Positions 33,019 through 59,666 of a stretch of 64,000 bases of DNA are shown in pieces. Position 1 is the stretch's first letter; every line of letters begins with the position of its first letter. Below the pieces are notes generated by a model. The model did no database searches, was not told the DNA's origin, and was given only the letters and a program-made list of their open reading frames with translations. The stretch covers positions 32,001 through 96,000 of the forward strand of contig CAVUZH010000004.1 in NCBI GenBank assembly GCA_963745835.1, read 5' to 3'. This stretch comes from an uncultured delta proteobacterium. GTDB taxonomy: Bacteria > Desulfobacterota > Binatia > UBA9968. A program made the translations under genes and the position numbers.

Positions 33019-34381
33019 ATGGCCAAACCCAAAACATTTTACGCCTGTCAGAGCTGCGGCTATCGAGCGCCCAAGTGGCTGGGCAAATGTCCCGACTGCA
33101 ATCAATGGAACACCTTTGCTGAGGAGAGGCTTGAAAGAGCAACCAGCGTACGCGGTGAACTCAGCCTCGGAACCAAAGAAGATCCGGCGCCGATTCATGA
33201 AATCAACACGGCAGAAGAAGGCCGGCTGCAATGTGGAATCGGCGAGTTCGATCGAGTATTGGGGGGCGGTCTGGTGCCGGGATCGGTTATTCTCATCGGC
33301 GGCGATCCCGGCATTGGCAAATCGACCCTGTTACTGCAGGCATTTGCTGCTATAAGCCAGCAAGGACTTACTTGCCTTTATGTCTCGGGCGAAGAATCAC
33401 CGCGGCAAATCAAAATGCGCGCCGAACGATTGGGCATCGTCGCACCCAATTTGCTCGTTCTCAGTGAAACCTCTTTGGAGAGAATCATAGAGCATGTCAA
33501 GCACATCCAACCCGGGCTGCTTGTCATCGATTCGATCCAAACTATTTTCAGTCCCTCGATTCCATCCGCGCCCGGCAGCATAGCCCAGGTGAGAGAGAGC
33601 TCTGGCTCAATCATCGTGCTGGCAAAAAAGACCGGGCTAACGACTTTCTTAATCGGTCACGTCACTAAGGACGGCGCCATCGCCGGCCCGCGGCTGCTCG
33701 AGCACATGGTCGACACCGTGCTCTATTTCGAGGGCGAGCGCGGCCATTCGTTCCGCGTGCTGCGCGCCGTTAAGAATCGCTTCGGCTCGACTAATGAAAT
33801 CGGCGTATTTGAAATGAAGGAAGCGGGACTCAAAGAGGTTAGCAATCCCTCCGAAATCTTCTTGATGGAGCGCCCGCTTCAGGTCCCGGGTTCGGCGGTG
33901 GTCTGCAGCATCGAAGGCACACGACCTATTTTGATAGAGCTCCAGGCGCTGGTGAGTCGATCGTTCCTAGCCGTGCCTCGGCGGACGACGATCGGCGTAG
34001 ATCACAACCGGGTCGCTTTGCTCGTCGCGGTTCTTGAAAAAAAGATGGGCGCCAAGCTTTTCGATCAGGATATTTTCGTCAACGTTGCCGGCGGCGTTCA
34101 TGTCGACGAGCCGGCGGTCGACCTCGGGATCGTCGCTGCAATCGCTTCGAGCAGCCGCGAGAACGTTCTCGATCCGAAAACAGTTTTTTTCGGAGAAGTC
34201 GGACTGGCCGGAGAGATCCGGGGCATCTCTCAAGCCGAAACCCGAATCAAGGAAGCAGGAAAATTAGGCTTTGAACGATGCATTCTTCCCGCCAGCAACA
34301 GCGCGCAACTCAAACATATCAAACATCCCAAATTGTCGCGGCGTGAGCTCCCTGAACGAGTGCTGGAAGGTGATGTTCTAG
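33019..34381 (+). CDS. radA: DNA repair protein RadA/Sms; C-terminal frameshift near 34336
   Basis: C4 zinc finger, GDPGIGKST, KNRFG. An alternative frame gives the typical tail GVSSLNECWKVMF* ending at 34381; the ORF as sequenced runs to 34557. Confidence 0.95.
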
Positions 34382-50647: not shown

Positions 50648-50935
50648 AACGTCTTATTCCGAGCCTGCATGAATTGAATCATTCCCTGAAAAGCCTTAGC
50701 TCCGGCCGCGCGTTGACCGCATTCGCCGAGTTTGCACCAACGTGTCCTTGCTCGAGTTTAGCTATACATAACAAGTGCTTGCGTTTTCCCGAGCGGATGC
50801 TTACATTCGACTGTAGCAGATATGCGCCGCCTCCCGCACCTGACCCATCCATTCCAGAACGTTGCCTCCCGGTGATACTCACGGCGAACGTGTTTTCCGT
50901 TGTCTTCGAGCTGAAGACACGGAGGAGAGATATTG

Positions 50936-52255
50936 ATGATCGTCGAAAATCTTTTTTTTGAAGCAGCCATCATTTTTCTTTTAATTCTGGCCAACGGATT
51001 CTTCGCTGCTTCGGAAATCGCCATGATCGCAATCCGCAAAAGCCGGATCGACACAATGATCGAAAAGGGAGTTAAATGCGCTTTAATTATCGGTCGCCTC
51101 AAAAAAGATCCAGACCGATTTTTGGCCACGGTACAGATCGGGGTTACGATTGTCAGCTCGCTGGCCTCGGCCCTCGGCGGGGCTGCGGCGATCTCGTTTG
51201 TTAAACCGGCTATTGAAGCAGCGGCGATTCCGGCCCTCGCCCCTTGGGCCGACGTAATCGCCATCGCGGTGGTGGTTATCCCGATCTCCTATCTTTCGCT
51301 GGTGTTCGGCGAGTTGGTGCCGAAATCGCTCGCGCTTCGCTTCTCTGAGCAGATCGCATGCATGGCTGCCCGCCCGATCGATCTTTTGTCGCGCCTTAGC
51401 TCATTTCTTGTGAGAATTCTGACCGGGTCCAGCAATGCGGTGCTTCGGTTGTTCGGCGGTTCCGAAGTCGAAGGCGCGAGTTTCATCAGCGTTGAGGAGG
51501 TGAAATCTCTCATTCGTGAAGGAGCGGCCAAAGGTATCTTCAACGAGACTGAGAAAGAGCTGATCCATGGTGTGTTTGAGCTGGCCGACACGCCAGTGAA
51601 AGCCGTCATGGTGCCGCGCACTGAAATTCACGCGCTCGAGATTCACTCCACTCCCAGCGAAGCCGCGGCGAGTTTCATCGAAAGCGGCTTCTCGCGCATC
51701 CCTATCTATGACGGCGAGCTGGATCATGTGGTCGGGGTTCTTTATAACAAAGATTTCTTTAAGACTCTGCAACAAAAAACCGAGTTTCGGATAAAAGATC
51801 ACCTGCACCCGGCGTTTTTCGTCCCTAGCACGCTGCCCATAAGCGAGCTGCTCAAGCAGTTGCAACGGCGCCGACTTGCGATGGCGATGGTGGTCAACGA
51901 ATTCGGCGAGGTCGAGGGATTGGCGACTCTTGAAGACTTGCTGGAGGAGATCGTCGGCGAAATCCGCGACGAGTATGATCGCGAAGAGCGCGGCCCGGTG
52001 GACCGGTTGCCTGACGGCTCGATGGTGATCCAGGGCTCGGCCCTATTAAAGGATCTGAAAGCGGACTTCGACCTGCCGTTCGAGGAGTCACCCGATTACC
52101 ATACGCTTGCCGGGTTCCTGTTAGCTAGGCTAAAGCGCATTCCCCGGGGCGGTGAATGGGTCGAAGAAAATGGCTACAAGCTCACCATCGTCGATATGGA
52201 AGGAAGGCGCATCGTCAAGATAAAACTGGAGCAAAATCCGCACAAACAACTTTGA
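50936..52255 (+). CDS. Hemolysin family/CNNM protein (DUF21-CBS-CorC)
   Basis: NGFFAASEIA, GELVPKSLA, GFSRIPIY, TLEDLLEEIVGEIRDEYD. Confidence 0.93.
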   Translation: MIVENLFFEAAIIFLLILANGFFAASEIAMIAIRKSRIDTMIEKGVKCALIIGRLKKDPDRFLATVQIGVTIVSSLASALGGAAAISFVKPAIEAAAIPALAPWADVIAIAVVVIPISYLSLVFGELVPKSLALRFSEQIACMAARPIDLLSRLSSFLVRILTGSSNAVLRLFGGSEVEGASFISVEEVKSLIREGAAKGIFNETEKELIHGVFELADTPVKAVMVPRTEIHALEIHSTPSEAAASFIESGFSRIPIYDGELDHVVGVLYNKDFFKTLQQKTEFRIKDHLHPAFFVPSTLPISELLKQLQRRRLAMAMVVNEFGEVEGLATLEDLLEEIVGEIRDEYDREERGPVDRLPDGSMVIQGSALLKDLKADFDLPFEESPDYHTLAGFLLARLKRIPRGGEWVEENGYKLTIVDMEGRRIVKIKLEQNPHKQL

Positions 52256-52260
52256 ATTGG

Positions 52261-52677
52261 TTAGTAGCAACGGATTTCTATTTCATTGCCGTCCGGATCG
52301 AGGAAGTAGACGGATGTCGCTTTGCCGCGGGCGCCCCAGCGCGAGACCGGCCCTTGTCTGATGATGATTCTATTCTCTTTCAAGTAGTCGATGATTCCAG
52401 CGAAATCCTCTTTGCTGGTGACCATGCAAAAATGATTCAGATTGCCCGCTGGTTTTTCTCCGTCACTCGGTCTACTCTGCTGTCCCTTCACTGGAAACAA
52501 ATCGATGATGGTGTCGGCATTGATGCGCACGGACGGAAAGCCGGCCTTGCCGGTTCGGAATTCGTCGAGACGTTCCGCTTTCAAGCCCATCACACCGGTA
52601 TAGAATTGCAGAGAGCGTTCGATATCACCGACGTTCAGCACGATATGGTCGAGCTCGCTAATTTTAAACCCGCTCAT
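52261..52677 (-). CDS. VOC/glyoxalase family protein
   Basis: LDHIVLNV, HFC, YFLDPDGNEIEI. Confidence 0.9.
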   Translation of the reverse strand: MSGFKISELDHIVLNVGDIERSLQFYTGVMGLKAERLDEFRTGKAGFPSVRINADTIIDLFPVKGQQSRPSDGEKPAGNLNHFCMVTSKEDFAGIIDYLKENRIIIRQGPVSRWGARGKATSVYFLDPDGNEIEIRCY

Positions 52678-53768
52678 AATTTGCCTCCTCCGCTTTGCAA
52701 CGGATTAACCGGATCCTTCTGAATTGCTGCGATCTGTTGCAACAACCTTTCGACATCTTCGGGAGTACCGACAGTGATGCGCAAGCTGTCTCGCAGTTCT
52801 GGTGTAGCAAAATAGCGCACGTAAATCTTTCTTTCCCGTAGCGCCTGGTAAAGCGCTTTTTGCTCCTGCCCTTTCCTTTGCGCCATTACAAAATTGGCGT
52901 GCGAGGGGTAGACATAAAAACCCAGCTTGACCAATCCATCGACCAGTTGCCACCGAGTTTGCTGGATGCGGCGAACATTCTGCTGCATCCAGGGAAGATC
53001 CTGCAACGCAGCCGTGGCGGCAACCAGGCTCAGACGATTTAGATTGTAACTGTCTTTGACCTTCATCATACCAGAAATTAATTCGGCAGGGGCAAAAGCC
53101 AGACCGATACGCAGACCCGCGAGAGAAAATGATTTGGAGAAAGTCCGCAGAACGATCAGATTGGGAATACTTTGAATCAAACAAATAGCAGATGAACCAG
53201 GGTCTTCAGCGAAATCGATATAAGCCTCGTCGACGACGAGAACTCCGGACACGGCCCGAGCTAGCCTCTCGATTTCGGTCAAACTCACCAGTGTTCCCGA
53301 CGGCGAGTTGGGATTGCACAAAAACGTGATGGCGGCATTTGCCGAGTGTAACTCCGGCGGAATTGCAAAATCGGCAGGATAATCGACGCACACCAGCTCG
53401 CCGTCTTGAACCTTCACCAAAGTCTCATAAAGCGAATACGTGGGTACTGGGAATGCGACTCGATCGCCTCGACCGGCAAAACAACGCAAGATGATTGACA
53501 GGATTTCATCCGAGCCATTCCCGGCCATAATATTCTCAAGGCGGACACCATAAACCTCTGCTGCAATGTTGCGGAGAGAATCGCTGAGCGGTTCCGGATA
53601 GAGCCTTAGCGACTGGTTTGTCGCATCACGTAATGCCGCGAGCACGCCCGGCGACGGCGGGTACGGGTTCTCGTTTGTGTTGAGCTTGGCAAGCTTTTCA
53701 TCACCAGGTTGCTCCCCGGGAACATAGCCGGCCATCGATGCAATGTTAGGGCGAAAATAACGTGACAT
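52674..53768 (-). CDS. hisC: Histidinol-phosphate aminotransferase
   Basis: KLNTNENPYPPS, GNGSDE, NPNSPSG, DEAY, RTFSKSFSLAGLRIG. Confidence 0.95.
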   Translation of the reverse strand: MSRYFRPNIASMAGYVPGEQPGDEKLAKLNTNENPYPPSPGVLAALRDATNQSLRLYPEPLSDSLRNIAAEVYGVRLENIMAGNGSDEILSIILRCFAGRGDRVAFPVPTYSLYETLVKVQDGELVCVDYPADFAIPPELHSANAAITFLCNPNSPSGTLVSLTEIERLARAVSGVLVVDEAYIDFAEDPGSSAICLIQSIPNLIVLRTFSKSFSLAGLRIGLAFAPAELISGMMKVKDSYNLNRLSLVAATAALQDLPWMQQNVRRIQQTRWQLVDGLVKLGFYVYPSHANFVMAQRKGQEQKALYQALRERKIYVRYFATPELRDSLRITVGTPEDVERLLQQIAAIQKDPVNPLQSGGGKL

Positions 53769-53985
53769 GGTGCGGATTCTAGCTGTCGCGAAAACCCATT
53801 TCAAACCACAATTAATTAGCTATTCCGAGTTAAGCGCCATCGAACAGCCCTGAGCTTGGTCTAAGGGTTTTGTCCAAATTTAATCGATTTTGTCCAGGAA
53901 TAGCTCCGTTGTGCACGATTTCACACGATTCTGCCTAACCGCTGTTTATAAGCTGCTGAAAATTAAGCGATTTCGTTTTTTACAC

Positions 53986-54001
53986 TGGCATGTTTTTGGC
54001 A
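53986..54001 (+). promoter_or_regulatory. Sigma54-type promoter for the coiled-coil/KaiC-like operon
   Basis: TGGCATGTTTTTGGCA (GG-N10-GC). Upstream are TGT-N10-ACA (53910..53925) and TTTTGTCCA direct repeats (53868, 53888). Confidence 0.62.
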
Positions 54002-54107
54002 CTGTGCCGGCAGGTTCGTGCTTCCAAGAGACTGCTAAGTCCGCCGCAGACGTTAATGGCGGTCGGAGTACGACGGCGAAGCGAATTTGGCAGCGTTAGA
54101 GGAAACT

Positions 54108-55272
54108 ATGCACAATCGTAATCAGTGTGAGATTGATGAAGTGGCAGCCTTGCAACAAGCAATTGGAGCTAAGGAATTGCTGTTGCGCGAGCGCGAGGCT
54201 GCGTTCGAAGCTCTGGAACAACGGTTGAACTCGACGATCGAACAACTGAGCGCGGACTTGAATGAAAAACAAACTTTGATCGGTCAAAACGAAATCAAAT
54301 CTCAGCAAGCGAAAGCAGACCTTAGTGAGATTGTGGAACAGAAGACCCGACTGGAGATGCTTCAAAAACAAACAGAACGATTGTTATCTGCTCAAGCCGA
54401 GCAAATCCGCGCCGGAGTTCGAGCTGAAATCCAATCTATGGAGAGGCAGCTCATCGACAAAGGACTCGGAGCTTCAAAAGTGCCAGGCCTGCGCCATGAA
54501 CCTGCGACATCGATTAGCGGAGATGCAGTTGCTCAGTGAAACACGAGCCGTTCAGATCGAGGATCTTAGGGCAGAAACCGTTCGCCTTTCGCTGGAAATT
54601 AATCGGCGCGAGCTGGTGAAGCTCGGAACCGAATCTGGCGGTGATCATGACTTCGGCCACGGCCGAGAGGCCGAAGCTGCGTCTGGTGAGATTTCGGCCG
54701 CACTGGACACAAACAGCCAAAAGTCAGAGAAAGCAGAAACACCGGCGTGGGATGAGATCATGATCCTGCGCCACGATGCGGAAGAAAAGAATCTTCTTCT
54801 CGCCAGCCGCAATGAAGAACTGATGCGGGTGAAAGCAGAGATGGACCTTCTTCAAGGCGAGCTAAGCGAACTCAAGTCGAGCATTAAGCGCATTCAGGAA
54901 TCGGCCAAGACTGAATGCGCCGAGATGCGCAGCGAGTTTCAAGCCCAAGTGGCTTTTTTACAGGCGGAGCTGAGCCAAAGGGACTGGACGCTCCAAGAAC
55001 GTGAAGCAGCGCAGAAGGTTCTCGAGCAAGGACTTCGCGCGAAGATCGGCCAATTGGAAGCTCAGCGAGAGCAGGTAAAAACTTCTACTGAGGGTCCAGC
55101 TCAGGAATTCGTTCTCGGTGTTAACTGGGAGTCAGAAGCGCGGTTAGATGATACGTGGAAGCTGCAAGAACGGCTTGACGGCAACGGCGCGGAAATCGCG
55201 CAAACGGCCTCCAACCAATCTGGCAAGTGGCGCAACAGCGGCGCGTGGAAAAGACGCTGGAGATCGCGATAA
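54108..55272 (+). CDS. Long coiled-coil protein with Trp/Arg-rich C-terminus (~387 aa after correcting a frameshift near 54460)
   Basis: AGAGGA precedes the ATG at 54108. ORFs 54087..54539 and 54325..55272 join as QLIDK-DSELQKC when one A is removed. Sequence is heptad-like and rich in E/Q/L/K/R. Confidence 0.72.
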
Positions 55273-55323
55273 GCAGCGCGCAACTTGCCTTTACCCGATA
55301 GATTATCCGCCAGAAGGACAACC

Positions 55324-56046
55324 ATGATAAAGACCGAACGAGTGACAACCGGCATTCCAGGATTGGATCAACTTCTTGAAGGTGGTTTCCCCAAGGATCG
55401 TTCTGTTCTCGTTACCGGCGAGCCTGGAACCGGAAAGACAATCTTTGCGCTACAATTCCTGGTGGAAGGCCTGAGGCGTGGAGAAAAGGGCATCTACGTC
55501 GCGGCCGATGAAGGTCCGACGGACATCATAGAACAGGCCGCCTCACTGGGATGGGATCTAGAGAAATACATTGAGGCGAAGGAGCTGGCGATCCTCAACG
55601 CTGGAACTTATCTGAGCTCCTCATCGGCCGCGGGAAAAGAGCGGCAGATCGATATTCATAAAGCGATCGGTGATCTTGCTGGGTTCGTTAACCGCTTAGG
55701 AGCAAAACGGCTGGTGCTGGATCCGGCTGGACCATTTGTTCTGCTGCGCGACACAACAATGCGCATCCAGGATCAGACCCGCCTGTTGATCAAGCTACTG
55801 CGAACTTCGATGCAGACAACCAATATTCTCACCTCGTATGGCGTGCCACGAACCGGCGAACGGACTCTGCATGGAATCGAGGAATACCTCGTTGCCGGCG
55901 CTATTATCCTGGAGATCGTCTGGCGGGACGGTAAGTTGGGTCGCAGCATGGTGATCGAAAAAATGCGCTGCACCGATGTCAAGCCGGCGCAGCACACATT
56001 TGACATTAGCAAAGTTCAGGGTTTCGTCCTCGATCCTCTGCCCTAA
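55324..56046 (+). CDS. Single-domain KaiC/RAD55-like RecA-superfamily ATPase 1
   Basis: TGIPGLDQLLEGGFP, GEPGTGKT, RLVLDP, GIEEYLV, IEKMR. Confidence 0.88.
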   Translation: MIKTERVTTGIPGLDQLLEGGFPKDRSVLVTGEPGTGKTIFALQFLVEGLRRGEKGIYVAADEGPTDIIEQAASLGWDLEKYIEAKELAILNAGTYLSSSSAAGKERQIDIHKAIGDLAGFVNRLGAKRLVLDPAGPFVLLRDTTMRIQDQTRLLIKLLRTSMQTTNILTSYGVPRTGERTLHGIEEYLVAGAIILEIVWRDGKLGRSMVIEKMRCTDVKPAQHTFDISKVQGFVLDPLP

Positions 56047-56070
56047 CACATCGCGCAGGTGACAATCACA

Positions 56071-56859
56071 ATGAATCCTCAGCGTGTTTCCACCGGTGTA
56101 TCCGGCTTAGATTCGCAACTGATTGGCGGGTTCATCAAAGGCCGTTCCTACGTTGTCCTCGGCGACGCTGGAGCGGGTAAAACCACCGCCTGCCTGCAGT
56201 TCCTTCTTAGCGGTCTCAAACAGGGAGAGAAGGGACTCTACATCACCGTCGATGAACGACCTGCGGAAATCATCGAGTCCGCGGCATCTCTGGGATGGGA
56301 TTTCGAGTCCTACACTCAAGATAAAAGCCTCGTGATGCTCGATGCCTCGCCTTACTTCAGCGGGCGAGCCGGCGCCGCACAGGACAAGGGCGTGGATCTG
56401 CAGAAGATCGTTTCGGATCTCGCCGGGTATGCCAAAAGAATCGATGCCAGCCGTCTTGTTATCGACCCGGTCACACCGATGATTTTTTCCGACTCACCGA
56501 ATCGAGTTCAGGATCAGGCCCGTTCCTTCATTCACCTCGTGCACTCGCAATTGAATACCACGAACTTATTCAGCGCCCAGTACTCTAGCCGAGCCCCCGA
56601 CCCTAGCTTTGGGATCGAGGAATTCCTCGTTTCCGGCGTCCTGCATCTGAAAACAATTCCGGTTGATAGCGGATTCGCTCGCAAGCTCACGATAAAAAAA
56701 ATGCGCGGCACGCCGATCCAGCCCAGCGAGTACTGGTTTTCAATCATCGCCGGCGAAGGCATTGTTTTGACTCAAGAAGGCGAGCGGCCCGTGGCGGCGC
56801 AGGAATCGGGCGATACAACATTGCTGGAATACTTCGAGCCCTTCGCCAGATCAAAGTAA
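56071..56859 (+). CDS. Single-domain KaiC/RAD55-like RecA-superfamily ATPase 2
   Basis: STGVSGLD, GDAGAGKT, RLVIDP, GIEEFLV, IKKMRGT; alternative GTG start at 56059. Confidence 0.88.
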   Translation: MNPQRVSTGVSGLDSQLIGGFIKGRSYVVLGDAGAGKTTACLQFLLSGLKQGEKGLYITVDERPAEIIESAASLGWDFESYTQDKSLVMLDASPYFSGRAGAAQDKGVDLQKIVSDLAGYAKRIDASRLVIDPVTPMIFSDSPNRVQDQARSFIHLVHSQLNTTNLFSAQYSSRAPDPSFGIEEFLVSGVLHLKTIPVDSGFARKLTIKKMRGTPIQPSEYWFSIIAGEGIVLTQEGERPVAAQESGDTTLLEYFEPFARSK

Positions 56860-56980
56860 TCGACTTGTTCAGATCCGCCTAGAGCGCTGGTCTTCATTTC
56901 TCTTCTCCTGCACCGGGCCTAAGCATCGCCGATAGCAGCTCCACCCGTCCAGAGCAAGATCGCGGCGCTGGCCGTTTTTC

Positions 56981-57009
56981 TTGACACCCCCCCAAGTGAT
57001 GATTAGCTT
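56981..57009 (+). promoter_or_regulatory. clpB promoter
   Basis: TTGACA-N17-TAGCTT. Confidence 0.65.
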
Positions 57010-57032
57010 TTGAGGGTCTAAGGGAGAAATAA

Positions 57033-59662
<2,630 letters not shown>

Positions 59663-59666
<4 letters not shown>

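Follow-up and report, generated by a model that had tools for sequence, protein, structure and literature searches.

A putative sigma-54 operon of Binatia encoding a rod protein and two single-domain KaiC-like ATPases, possibly a signal-controlled switch outside the clock

Introduction

What does a KaiC-type ATPase do in a bacterium that has neither KaiA nor KaiB? The question is raised by a locus in a 64,000-nt stretch of DNA from an uncultured delta proteobacterium of the Binatia (GenBank assembly GCA_963745835.1, contig CAVUZH010000004.1, positions 32,001 to 96,000; G000:C4:32001-96000 in our numbering). The whole stretch is called the window here, and the genome it belongs to comprises 7.28 Mb in 25 contigs and is 97.1% complete. 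The window carries a sigma-54-type promoter followed by three co-oriented genes, one for a coiled-coil protein (the rod) and two for paralogous KaiC-like ATPases, K1 and K2 (Table 1). We tentatively read this unit, at a little short of an even chance, as a signal-controlled ATPase switch with a rod partner, expressed from an enhancer-dependent sigma-54 operon and acting in pilus or surface behaviour rather than in a clock.

Results

K1 and K2 are single-domain ATPases of the KaiC CI type

Both ATPases matched the KaiC family PF06745 (gathering score 26.6) over almost the whole profile (208.3 bits, positions 1-224 of 231, for K1; 187.8 bits, 1-229 of 231, for K2), and they are 42% identical to each other. 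The ATG of K1 is preceded by the ribosome-binding site AGAAGGA. Among solved structures, each scored best on the CI domain of KaiC (119.8 bits versus 47.2 for CII with K1, 102.6 versus 39.8 with K2), and the KaiC region aligned with them was about residues 12-244. Walker A reads GEPGTGKT in K1 and GDAGAGKT in K2, and Walker B reads LVLDP and LVIDP. A D-E pair stands at the position of the E-E pair of KaiC CI, GIEEY or GIEEF sits where KaiC CI has GVEEF, and the K-M-R arginine finger is retained in both proteins. No Ser/Thr phosphosite of the CII type was found in K1 or K2, GIEE(Y/F) occupying that position. The alignment therefore bears out all of the catalytic signatures that the preliminary description had read in the two genes, and K1 is predicted to be an active ATPase.

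The two proteins do not look like a clock KaiC. Scores on the clock models were far below the cut-offs (NF006799, 144.5 bits for K1 and 124.4 for K2 versus 408; TIGR02655, 98.1 and 92.2 versus 546), and each protein is one domain instead of a CI-CII fusion of about 500 aa. Searching the 97.1%-complete genome for KaiB (PF07689) and KaiA (PF07688) returned no match. Curated cut-offs for clock KaiC, archaeal KaiC groups, ArlH, RadA, RadB and RecA were reached by neither protein. The genome showed no further genuine KaiC-family gene, its remaining weak matches being RadA, RecA and DnaB, each a separate gene. On these grounds the earlier proposal of a non-clock KaiC-family module lacking KaiA and KaiB stands.

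Two side observations concern KaiC-like frames elsewhere. A 512-aa frame near 33229-33819 of the window (G000:C4:65229-65819) gave two weak KaiC-family matches summing to 69 bits, RadA/Sms being its likeliest identity rather than a two-domain KaiC. KaiC homologs with two domains and about 590-630 aa occur in some Binatia (L129:2432-4533 in genome G019, L128:1859-3721 in G011); that of G019 is followed by a 107-aa frame which is KaiB-like by eye, and the window's genome has neither.

In a quick maximum-likelihood tree of 78 KaiC-like domains, all single-domain proteins of Binatia fell in one clade (support 100). K1 formed a clade of 12 members (support 100), K2 a clade of the 10 tandem K2 genes plus 3 K2-type genes standing alone before clpB (support 98-99), and a third clade, K3, had 7 members (support 100). 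The next relatives outside bacteria were Thermoproteota homologs with 37-39% identity. Across genera, K1 orthologs are 74-85% identical and K2 orthologs 49-57%, identities by which K2 is the faster-evolving paralog of K1. K2-type proteins end in a conserved acidic-hydrophobic tail, LLE(Y/F)F(E/Q)PxK.

The promoter and its upstream repeats are conserved across genera

The -24/-12 element TGGCATGTTTTTGGCA is the sole match to TGGCAYN5TKGCW in the window. Since at least one match also occurred in 21 of 100 shuffles, this uniqueness is weak, and the real support for the promoter is its conservation: with small variants, 14 genomes of nine Binatia genera have the element ahead of the unit's first gene, be it the rod gene or K1. 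The genome encodes RpoN (DNA-binding domain, E 5e-62) and about 25 sigma-54 activator (enhancer-binding) proteins. The canonical pattern TGGCAY-N5-TTGCW was counted 48 times in it, versus 16 times for a reversed-pattern control.

About 100 bp upstream of the promoter lie two TTTTGTCCA repeats. In an alignment of 11 genomes from different genera, nine had both repeats intact, and in the remaining two one of the repeats was degenerate; in most genera GACATTTTTGTC contains the first copy. The tandem arrangement TTGTCCA-N10-16-TTGTCCA is unique in the window's genome. Between repeats and promoter, an A/T-rich block is conserved in position and sequence and reads CTAAG...TGATTTCA in most genera. 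Several genera fit the consensus of integration host factor (IHF), WATCAANNNNTTR, and the window's copy fits it poorly; we treat this resemblance as a lead only. The -24/-12 motif and the possible activator sites of the preliminary description were thus both recovered as conserved elements, and comparison of the sequences supports the sigma-54 dependence of the unit well.

Table 1. Features of the locus in window coordinates.
Feature	Position	Strand	Evidence
Unit between hisC and clpB (sigma-54 promoter, rod gene, K1, K2)	53868-56859	+	
Two TTTTGTCCA repeats as putative activator sites, their starts 20 bp apart	53868-53876 and 53888-53896	+	Conservation
A/T-rich block between enhancer and promoter, IHF-like	53945-53976	+	Alignment across genera
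-24/-12 element TGGCATGTTTTTGGCA (GG-N10-GC), 106 nt before the rod ATG	53986-54001	+	Conserved
Rod protein gene, frame-broken (intact form 387 aa)	54108-55272	+	Heptads, AlphaFold2 model, orthologs
K1, single-domain CI-type KaiC-like ATPase, 240 aa	55324-56046	+	PF06745, E 1.4e-61
K2, paralogous CI-type KaiC-like ATPase, 262-266 aa	56071 (ATG) or 56059 (GTG)-56859	+	PF06745, E 2.5e-55
Independent promoter of clpB, TTGACA-N17-TAGCTT, GATG before the -10	56981-57009	+	Conserved across Binatia loci
clpB, conserved right flank	57033-59666	+	TIGR03346, 1418.4 bits (cut-off 1232.1)
hisC (histidinol-phosphate transaminase), divergent conserved left flank	52674-53804	-	TIGR01141, 326.4 bits (cut-off 276.55)
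Glyoxalase-fold protein	52261-52677	-	
CNNM/CorC-type transporter	50933-52255		

K1 is the constant gene, accompanied in most loci by K2 and a rod

Gene order was compared in 12 K1-clade genomes (the window's own, G006, G014, G010, G019, G023, G016, G021, G008, G020, G002 and G007); the unpublished genomes G012 and G018 entered search tallies alone, and nothing claimed here depends on them. K2 followed K1 in 10 of the 12 loci, being missing from G002 and G007, and the rod gene preceded K1 in 9, being missing from G014, G008 and G020. All three genes were present in 7 loci, and K1 was the constant gene. The three-gene linkage that the preliminary description had expected in relatives is therefore seen in part: the genes recur together, and neither K2 nor the rod is obligate.

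A coiled coil of about 387 aa had been described as the first gene. In the window it is not one frame: an upstream frame at 54108-54539 overlaps a second one, in the +1 frame, that continues to 55272. Alignment with the same-genus genomes G001, G005 and G006 traced the break to one extra A in the run at 54459-54461, and in each of these three genomes, which are those of the genus that cover the gene, the rod frame is uninterrupted with 385-391 aa. The extra A was also absent from all three public contigs that cover the site, from runs X1 and X6 (DNA) and X15 (an RNA library). The X1 piece, 1131 nt long with 9 other differences, is 99.2% identical to the window. Coverage is lacking at this site in run X4 and over parts of K1 in X1, X4 and X15. 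Since the base is missing from same-genus genomes and covering contigs alike, the break is most likely an assembly error or a mutation private to the strain; the length originally given holds for the intact gene.

The rod protein appears to be a two-armed helical coil. Its heptad signal (0.363) exceeded that of all 200 shuffles (mean 0.179, maximum 0.317). An AlphaFold2 model of the intact G006 ortholog gave two long helices, residues 2-166 and 191-359, with a disordered linker (167-190) and tail (360-387). In this model 250 residues had a predicted local distance difference test score (pLDDT) of at least 90, the mean pLDDT was 81.3, and the predicted template modelling score was 0.30.

No Pfam family matched the rod protein, either as the window's frames or as intact orthologs, and PspA_IM30 in particular gave no match in the window's frames (E up to 0.1) or in the intact orthologs (1e-4). 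An ESM Atlas search with the intact rod returned generic eukaryotic coiled-coil fragments only. Metagenomic relatives of the rod core (n = 97) are mostly 384-388 aa long and are labelled at source as 'hypothetical protein' or, automatically, as 'chromosome segregation ATPase'. Rod lengths vary across genera between about 140 aa and 675 aa or more (the contig of G021 starts within its copy), and the shared features are only two: a core of 35 residues with the invariant pattern QTERLL..Q..Q.R..VR.E (consensus LQKQTERLLSAQAEQIRxGVRAEI), and a basic Trp-rich C-terminal tail, KWRxxxxWKRRWR, kept in several genera.

In genomes of two other genera, G010 (L021:2590-3450) and G019 (L022:4340-5180, minus strand), the rod frame stops after about 140-150 aa. 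Some 70 codons further on, in the +1 frame, follows the conserved RW-rich tail motif, perhaps with its own start (PEM..KEQ). Possible explanations are that both genera share a gene split in two, that the shift is programmed, or that the assemblies contain errors.

A second rod-KaiC pair and a shared enhancer motif hint at a link to pilus genes

Genes of the K3 clade are preceded by another coiled-coil protein without a Pfam match, of 360-970 aa. Its N-terminus LFGWLxxRAGxD is conserved, and its C-terminus RMSAEIExVRAELKExxGRWK resembles the core and tail of the K1 rod. In the same-genus genomes G002, G003 and G007 the order, as assigned with Pfam, is divergent priA, promoter, rod, K3 and then pilM-pilN-pilO-pilP-pilQ. 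The promoter of this rod-K3-pilMNOPQ unit reads TGGCATAATTTTAGCG, with TGTCCA-N4-TGTCCA about 100 bp upstream, and the K3 unit of G023 has the same promoter design. The recurrence of the rod-KaiC pairing in this paralogous unit favours a functional partnership of the two proteins.

The window's genome is without K3, and an identical promoter with its repeats stands at C18:140853, before pilMNOPQ. Among 279 loosely defined sigma-54 sites of this genome, tandem TGTCCA repeats 80-120 bp upstream were found at three: the operon studied here, pilMNOPQ (C18:140853) and an operon encoding a helix-turn-helix (HTH) protein, a GAF/PAS kinase and a receiver (REC) protein (C15:113837). The chance expectation for a single TGTCCA-type heptamer is 0.016 per 160 nt. 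The last of these sites (minus strand, locus L132) has the same design, with TTGTCCAGATTTGTCCA and TGGCATTGCCATTGCG. In its three-gene operon the HTH protein is of excisionase type (76 aa), the GAF/PAS histidine kinase has 1253 aa, and the third product is the receiver protein.

We read up to 1.5 kb upstream of pilM in 23 loci, and the pilM landmark was located in 21 of them. The TGTCCA/sigma-54 promoter was found in this stretch in three (G000, which is the window's genome, G001 and G005). G002 and G007 have it ahead of rod-K3, at a greater distance from pilM, and G033 has a sigma-54-like site without TGTCCA. In G000, G001 and G005 about 410 nt separate the promoter from pilM (C18:140869-141280), where sister genomes hold the rod and K3; this gap could be what a deletion left behind, or else a long leader.

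A candidate activator is encoded at C18:20120-22165 (minus strand; L131:1121-3166), directly after pilB and pilC. It combines a PilS-type six-helix membrane domain, a PAS domain, a sigma-54 AAA domain and HTH_8, a Fis-type HTH, and looks like a one-component 'PilS-PilR'; it is an obvious candidate for acting on the TGTCCA repeats. Full-length orthologs were found in Binatia family f1 and part of family f2, and not in f3. This split is the same as that of the KaiC-like genes, so the pattern adds nothing independent.

Relatives combine a K-type gene with a receiver-fused KaiC-like domain

Other Binatia (G017, G015, G029, G033 and public loci, from family f2 and parts of f1) have a K-type gene between hisC and clpB, followed by a protein that joins a receiver domain to a divergent KaiC-like one, and then by a REC-PAS-HATPase protein. 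The pair of a K-type and a REC-KaiC gene also occurs in Abditibacteriaceae, Methylomirabilis, Marinamargulisbacteria and Dehalococcoidales. The fused KaiC-like domain keeps Walker A and has DD for EE and MKW for KMR, so it is probably no normal ATPase. Upstream of these K plus REC-KaiC loci no sigma-54 element was found. With receiver and kinase partners of this kind, the wider K-type family can be placed in phosphorelay contexts, and the window's family appears to have exchanged an input at the protein level for a transcriptional one.

Discussion

How the unit may work

From these comparisons we infer ring formation, contacts between K1 and K2 and between rod and ATPase, the identity of the activator, and the link to pili. 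A dedicated activator would bind the two TTTTGTCCA repeats, the DNA would be bent at the A/T-rich block, and sigma-54 polymerase waiting at TGGCATGTTTTTGGCA would be opened. The transcript would encode a two-armed helical rod, K1 and K2. K1, alone or in mixed or stacked rings with K2, would cycle ATP like the CI ring of KaiC, and the rod, by way of its invariant core or its Trp-rich tail, would tether K1 or link it to some target in the cell. In sister lineages the input would act at the protein level, through the receiver-fused degenerate KaiC and the hybrid kinase; in the window's family it would have moved to transcription. Control of pilus or surface behaviour seems the likeliest field of action, considering the enhancer type shared with pilMNOPQ and the second rod-KaiC pair before pilMNOPQ in sister genomes.

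Several results weigh against this reading of a signal-controlled switch in the pilus or surface field. The rod gene is broken in the window's assembly, and the trio is not obligate, with K2 missing from 2 and the rod from 3 of 12 loci; these relatives are moreover kin and not independent samples, so that such counts overstate their independence. None of 182 longer K1 relatives is a fused K1-K2 protein, the best full-length matches among them being generic multi-domain KaiC proteins of 25-39% identity. The -12 part of the unit's promoter is TGGCA and not the TTGCT usual in this genome. As for pili, the link draws on adjacency in one genus (G002, G003, G007) and on a short common motif, 16 other genomes have no such promoter within up to 1.5 kb upstream of pilM, and the window's own unit adjoins clpB and hisC instead. 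A hint of expression comes from contigs of the soil metatranscriptome X15, which cover parts of the rod gene, the rod-K1 junction (55146-55353) and parts of K2 (56122-56382 and 56696-56900). These contigs are about 90-97% identical to the window and come from relatives of about 95% identity; they may include DNA, and they cannot show a single transcript or its start.

Other explanations of the locus

The position of the unit suggests a different role, in which it would be a proteostasis or stress module coupled to ClpB, with the ATPases, perhaps through the tail of K2, regulating or assisting the disaggregase. In almost every Binatia locus read, clpB is immediately preceded by a K-type block, which may consist of rod-K1-K2, K1 alone, a K2-type gene alone, or K with REC-KaiC and kinase, and the K2-type protein with its conserved tail is always encoded by the gene next to clpB. 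KaiC homologs have also been linked to stress resistance in Pseudomonas, according to a preprint (bioRxiv 10.1101/2022.01.26.477890). We nevertheless hold a ClpB-coupled module to be unlikely. The TTGACA-N17-TAnnTT promoter of clpB, of sigma-70 type, was kept in the 20 clpB upstream regions compared from Binatia loci, and no sigma-54 element accompanies it. With so strongly conserved a promoter of its own for clpB, the unit stops before that gene, just where the preliminary description had ended it. In addition, hisC keeps the same place upstream of the unit in related loci and is equally conserved, so the neighbourhood may be plain inherited gene order within one class, and homologs in four other phyla do not stand beside clpB.

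Three further observations were made around the end of the unit. The clpB promoter (tttCTTGACA-N12-13-GATGcTTAAnTT, loci L019-L055) is near-invariant across Binatia families, exceeding the coding flanks in this respect, a pattern suggesting that a regulator or a sigma specificity is conserved with it. A terminator-like site at 56962-56975 carries little weight, as 2 such sites were found versus 3.8 expected. An Rfam scan of 53600-57200 gave nothing beyond one sub-threshold chance match.

The fold of the ATPases allows another role, that of recombination or repair mediators, RecA-fold proteins like RadA or RadB paralogs that would act on DNA. They do belong to the RecA superfamily, and their solved relatives include the archaeal RadA paralog SSO2452 (99 bits). 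Some neighbours fit as well: Abditibacteriaceae homologs adjoin a UvrD/PcrA helicase, the K3 unit is divergent from priA, and RecD2 is encoded 3 kb upstream in the window. Even so, we regard a repair function as highly doubtful, because the matches to KaiC CI are by far the best (120-169 bits), whereas the RadA, RadB and RecA models gave 19-32 bits against cut-offs of 172-403. For K1 and K2 respectively, these scores were 30.3 and 32.1 bits on the sms family (cut-off 403), 21.0 and 19.9 on TIGR02237 (172.4) and 26.8 and 20.8 on NF006861 (278) for RadB, and 22.4 and 18.6 on the RecA family (325). Neither the ATPases nor the rod matched a Pfam DNA-binding family, and the partners in relatives are receiver domains and kinases.

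A split timer is very improbable. Here rings of K1 and K2 would stack like CI on CII in KaiC and run as an hourglass without KaiB. The idea draws on the tandem paralogs both being ATPases of a hexamer-forming family with the arginine finger kept, and on canonical KaiC being itself a fusion of two such domains; against this, both proteins are CI-like with GIEE(Y/F) instead of the CII phosphosite, the genome has no KaiA or KaiB, K1-K2 fusions were not found, and G002 and G007 dispense with K2. It is just as hard to credit that the unit is decaying in this organism, as the frame break at 54459 and the two-frame rods of G010 and G019 might suggest, since the break comes down to a single extra base in a run of A, which same-genus genomes and covering contigs lack, K1 and K2 are intact, and most metagenomic rod relatives keep the full length.

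Relation to known systems

The unit matches no described bacterial system and belongs among the KaiC-like signalling ATPases. Its closest counterpart in the cyanobacterial clock is KaiC CI, with which Walker A and B, the second catalytic Glu, GxEEF and K-M-R all align; KaiC differs in being a CI-CII fusion with E-E, a CII phosphosite and KaiA and KaiB as partners, whereas K1 and K2 are single domains with D-E. The archaeal single-domain KaiC-like proteins ('KaiC_arch', TIGR03881/03877/03880) have the same size and one-domain architecture. K1 scored 126.7 bits against archaeal PH0186, 119.2 against PH0284 and 99 against SSO2452, and all KaiC_arch cut-offs are above the scores of K1 and K2 (for example 138.6 versus 247.8 bits). 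Unlike those proteins, K1 and K2 are bacterial, apparently sigma-54-driven, and paired with a rod and a paralog.

A parallel also exists in the archaellum. According to one study, the KaiC-fold protein FlaH binds the coiled-coil-containing scaffold FlaX and the pilus-type ATPase FlaI, and it has no detectable ATPase activity and a non-canonical Walker B (PMC5019145). ArlH/FlaH with ArlX/FlaX resembles the Binatia unit in joining a small KaiC-fold protein to a coiled-coil scaffold in a setting related to type IV pili, and the Binatia rod-KaiC pair directly before pilMNOPQ in G002, G003 and G007 adds to the likeness. In sequence ArlH is distant (42 bits for K1 and 39.3 for K2 on NF052589 against a cut-off of 215; 29.8 bits on structure 4yds), the neighbours here are hisC and clpB and not ArlI/ArlJ, and no similarity of the rod proteins to FlaX was detected. 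K1 and K2 further keep the KaiC catalytic set, in contrast to FlaH. A bolder proposal would make the Binatia proteins counterparts of ArlX and ArlH that plug into type IV pilus machines, with one PilS/PilR-like sigma-54 activator switching all these units through TGTCCA and the K1/K2 pair, as a split double ring of CI type only, gating pilus or surface behaviour in answer to that signal. We consider it quite unlikely.

In Pseudomonas, a KaiC homolog of non-clock type works with a kinase and a regulator in stress resistance, as stated in the preprint (bioRxiv 10.1101/2022.01.26.477890). The arrangement of K, REC-KaiC and kinase in Binatia family f2 and in four other phyla is comparable, but in the window's family K1 and K2 are single CI-like domains, and kinase and receiver are swapped for K2, the rod and sigma-54 control. 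Pilus regulation of the PilR type also depends on sigma-54, and here a sigma-54 promoter with TGTCCA repeats precedes pilMNOPQ while the PilS-type activator lies beside pilB-pilC. The repeats presumably resemble the PilR site of Pseudomonas, with its TGTC core. In the literature searched, known PilR regulons were not reported to include KaiC-like ATPases, and full-text searches returned no paper on KaiC-family genes in Binatia and none describing a bacterial unit of a rod with a single-domain KaiC.

What the unit means for KaiC-like proteins and for Binatia

Makarova and colleagues reportedly proposed single-domain KaiC-like ATPases as major signalling hubs in archaea. In bacteria such proteins are annotated in passing and essentially unstudied. 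The present locus offers a unit that looks well defined, with a promoter, an enhancer, a rod partner and two active-looking paralogs, together with a natural variant series (K1 alone, K1 with K2, rod with K1, and K with a receiver-fused degenerate KaiC and a kinase). A regulatory tie to the genes of type IV pilus assembly is suggested as well, and can be put to the test. Should it be true, the partnership of a KaiC-fold protein with a pilus machine, seen in the archaellum, would extend to bacteria, and it would give an entry into the physiology of Binatia, to our knowledge an abundant and uncultured soil lineage. Were the proteins true counterparts of the archaellum pair, a kind of KaiC-based control known until now from archaea alone would be at work here. 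And if the pilus tie fails, the unit would still be a clean model of a KaiC CI-type ATPase outside the clock.

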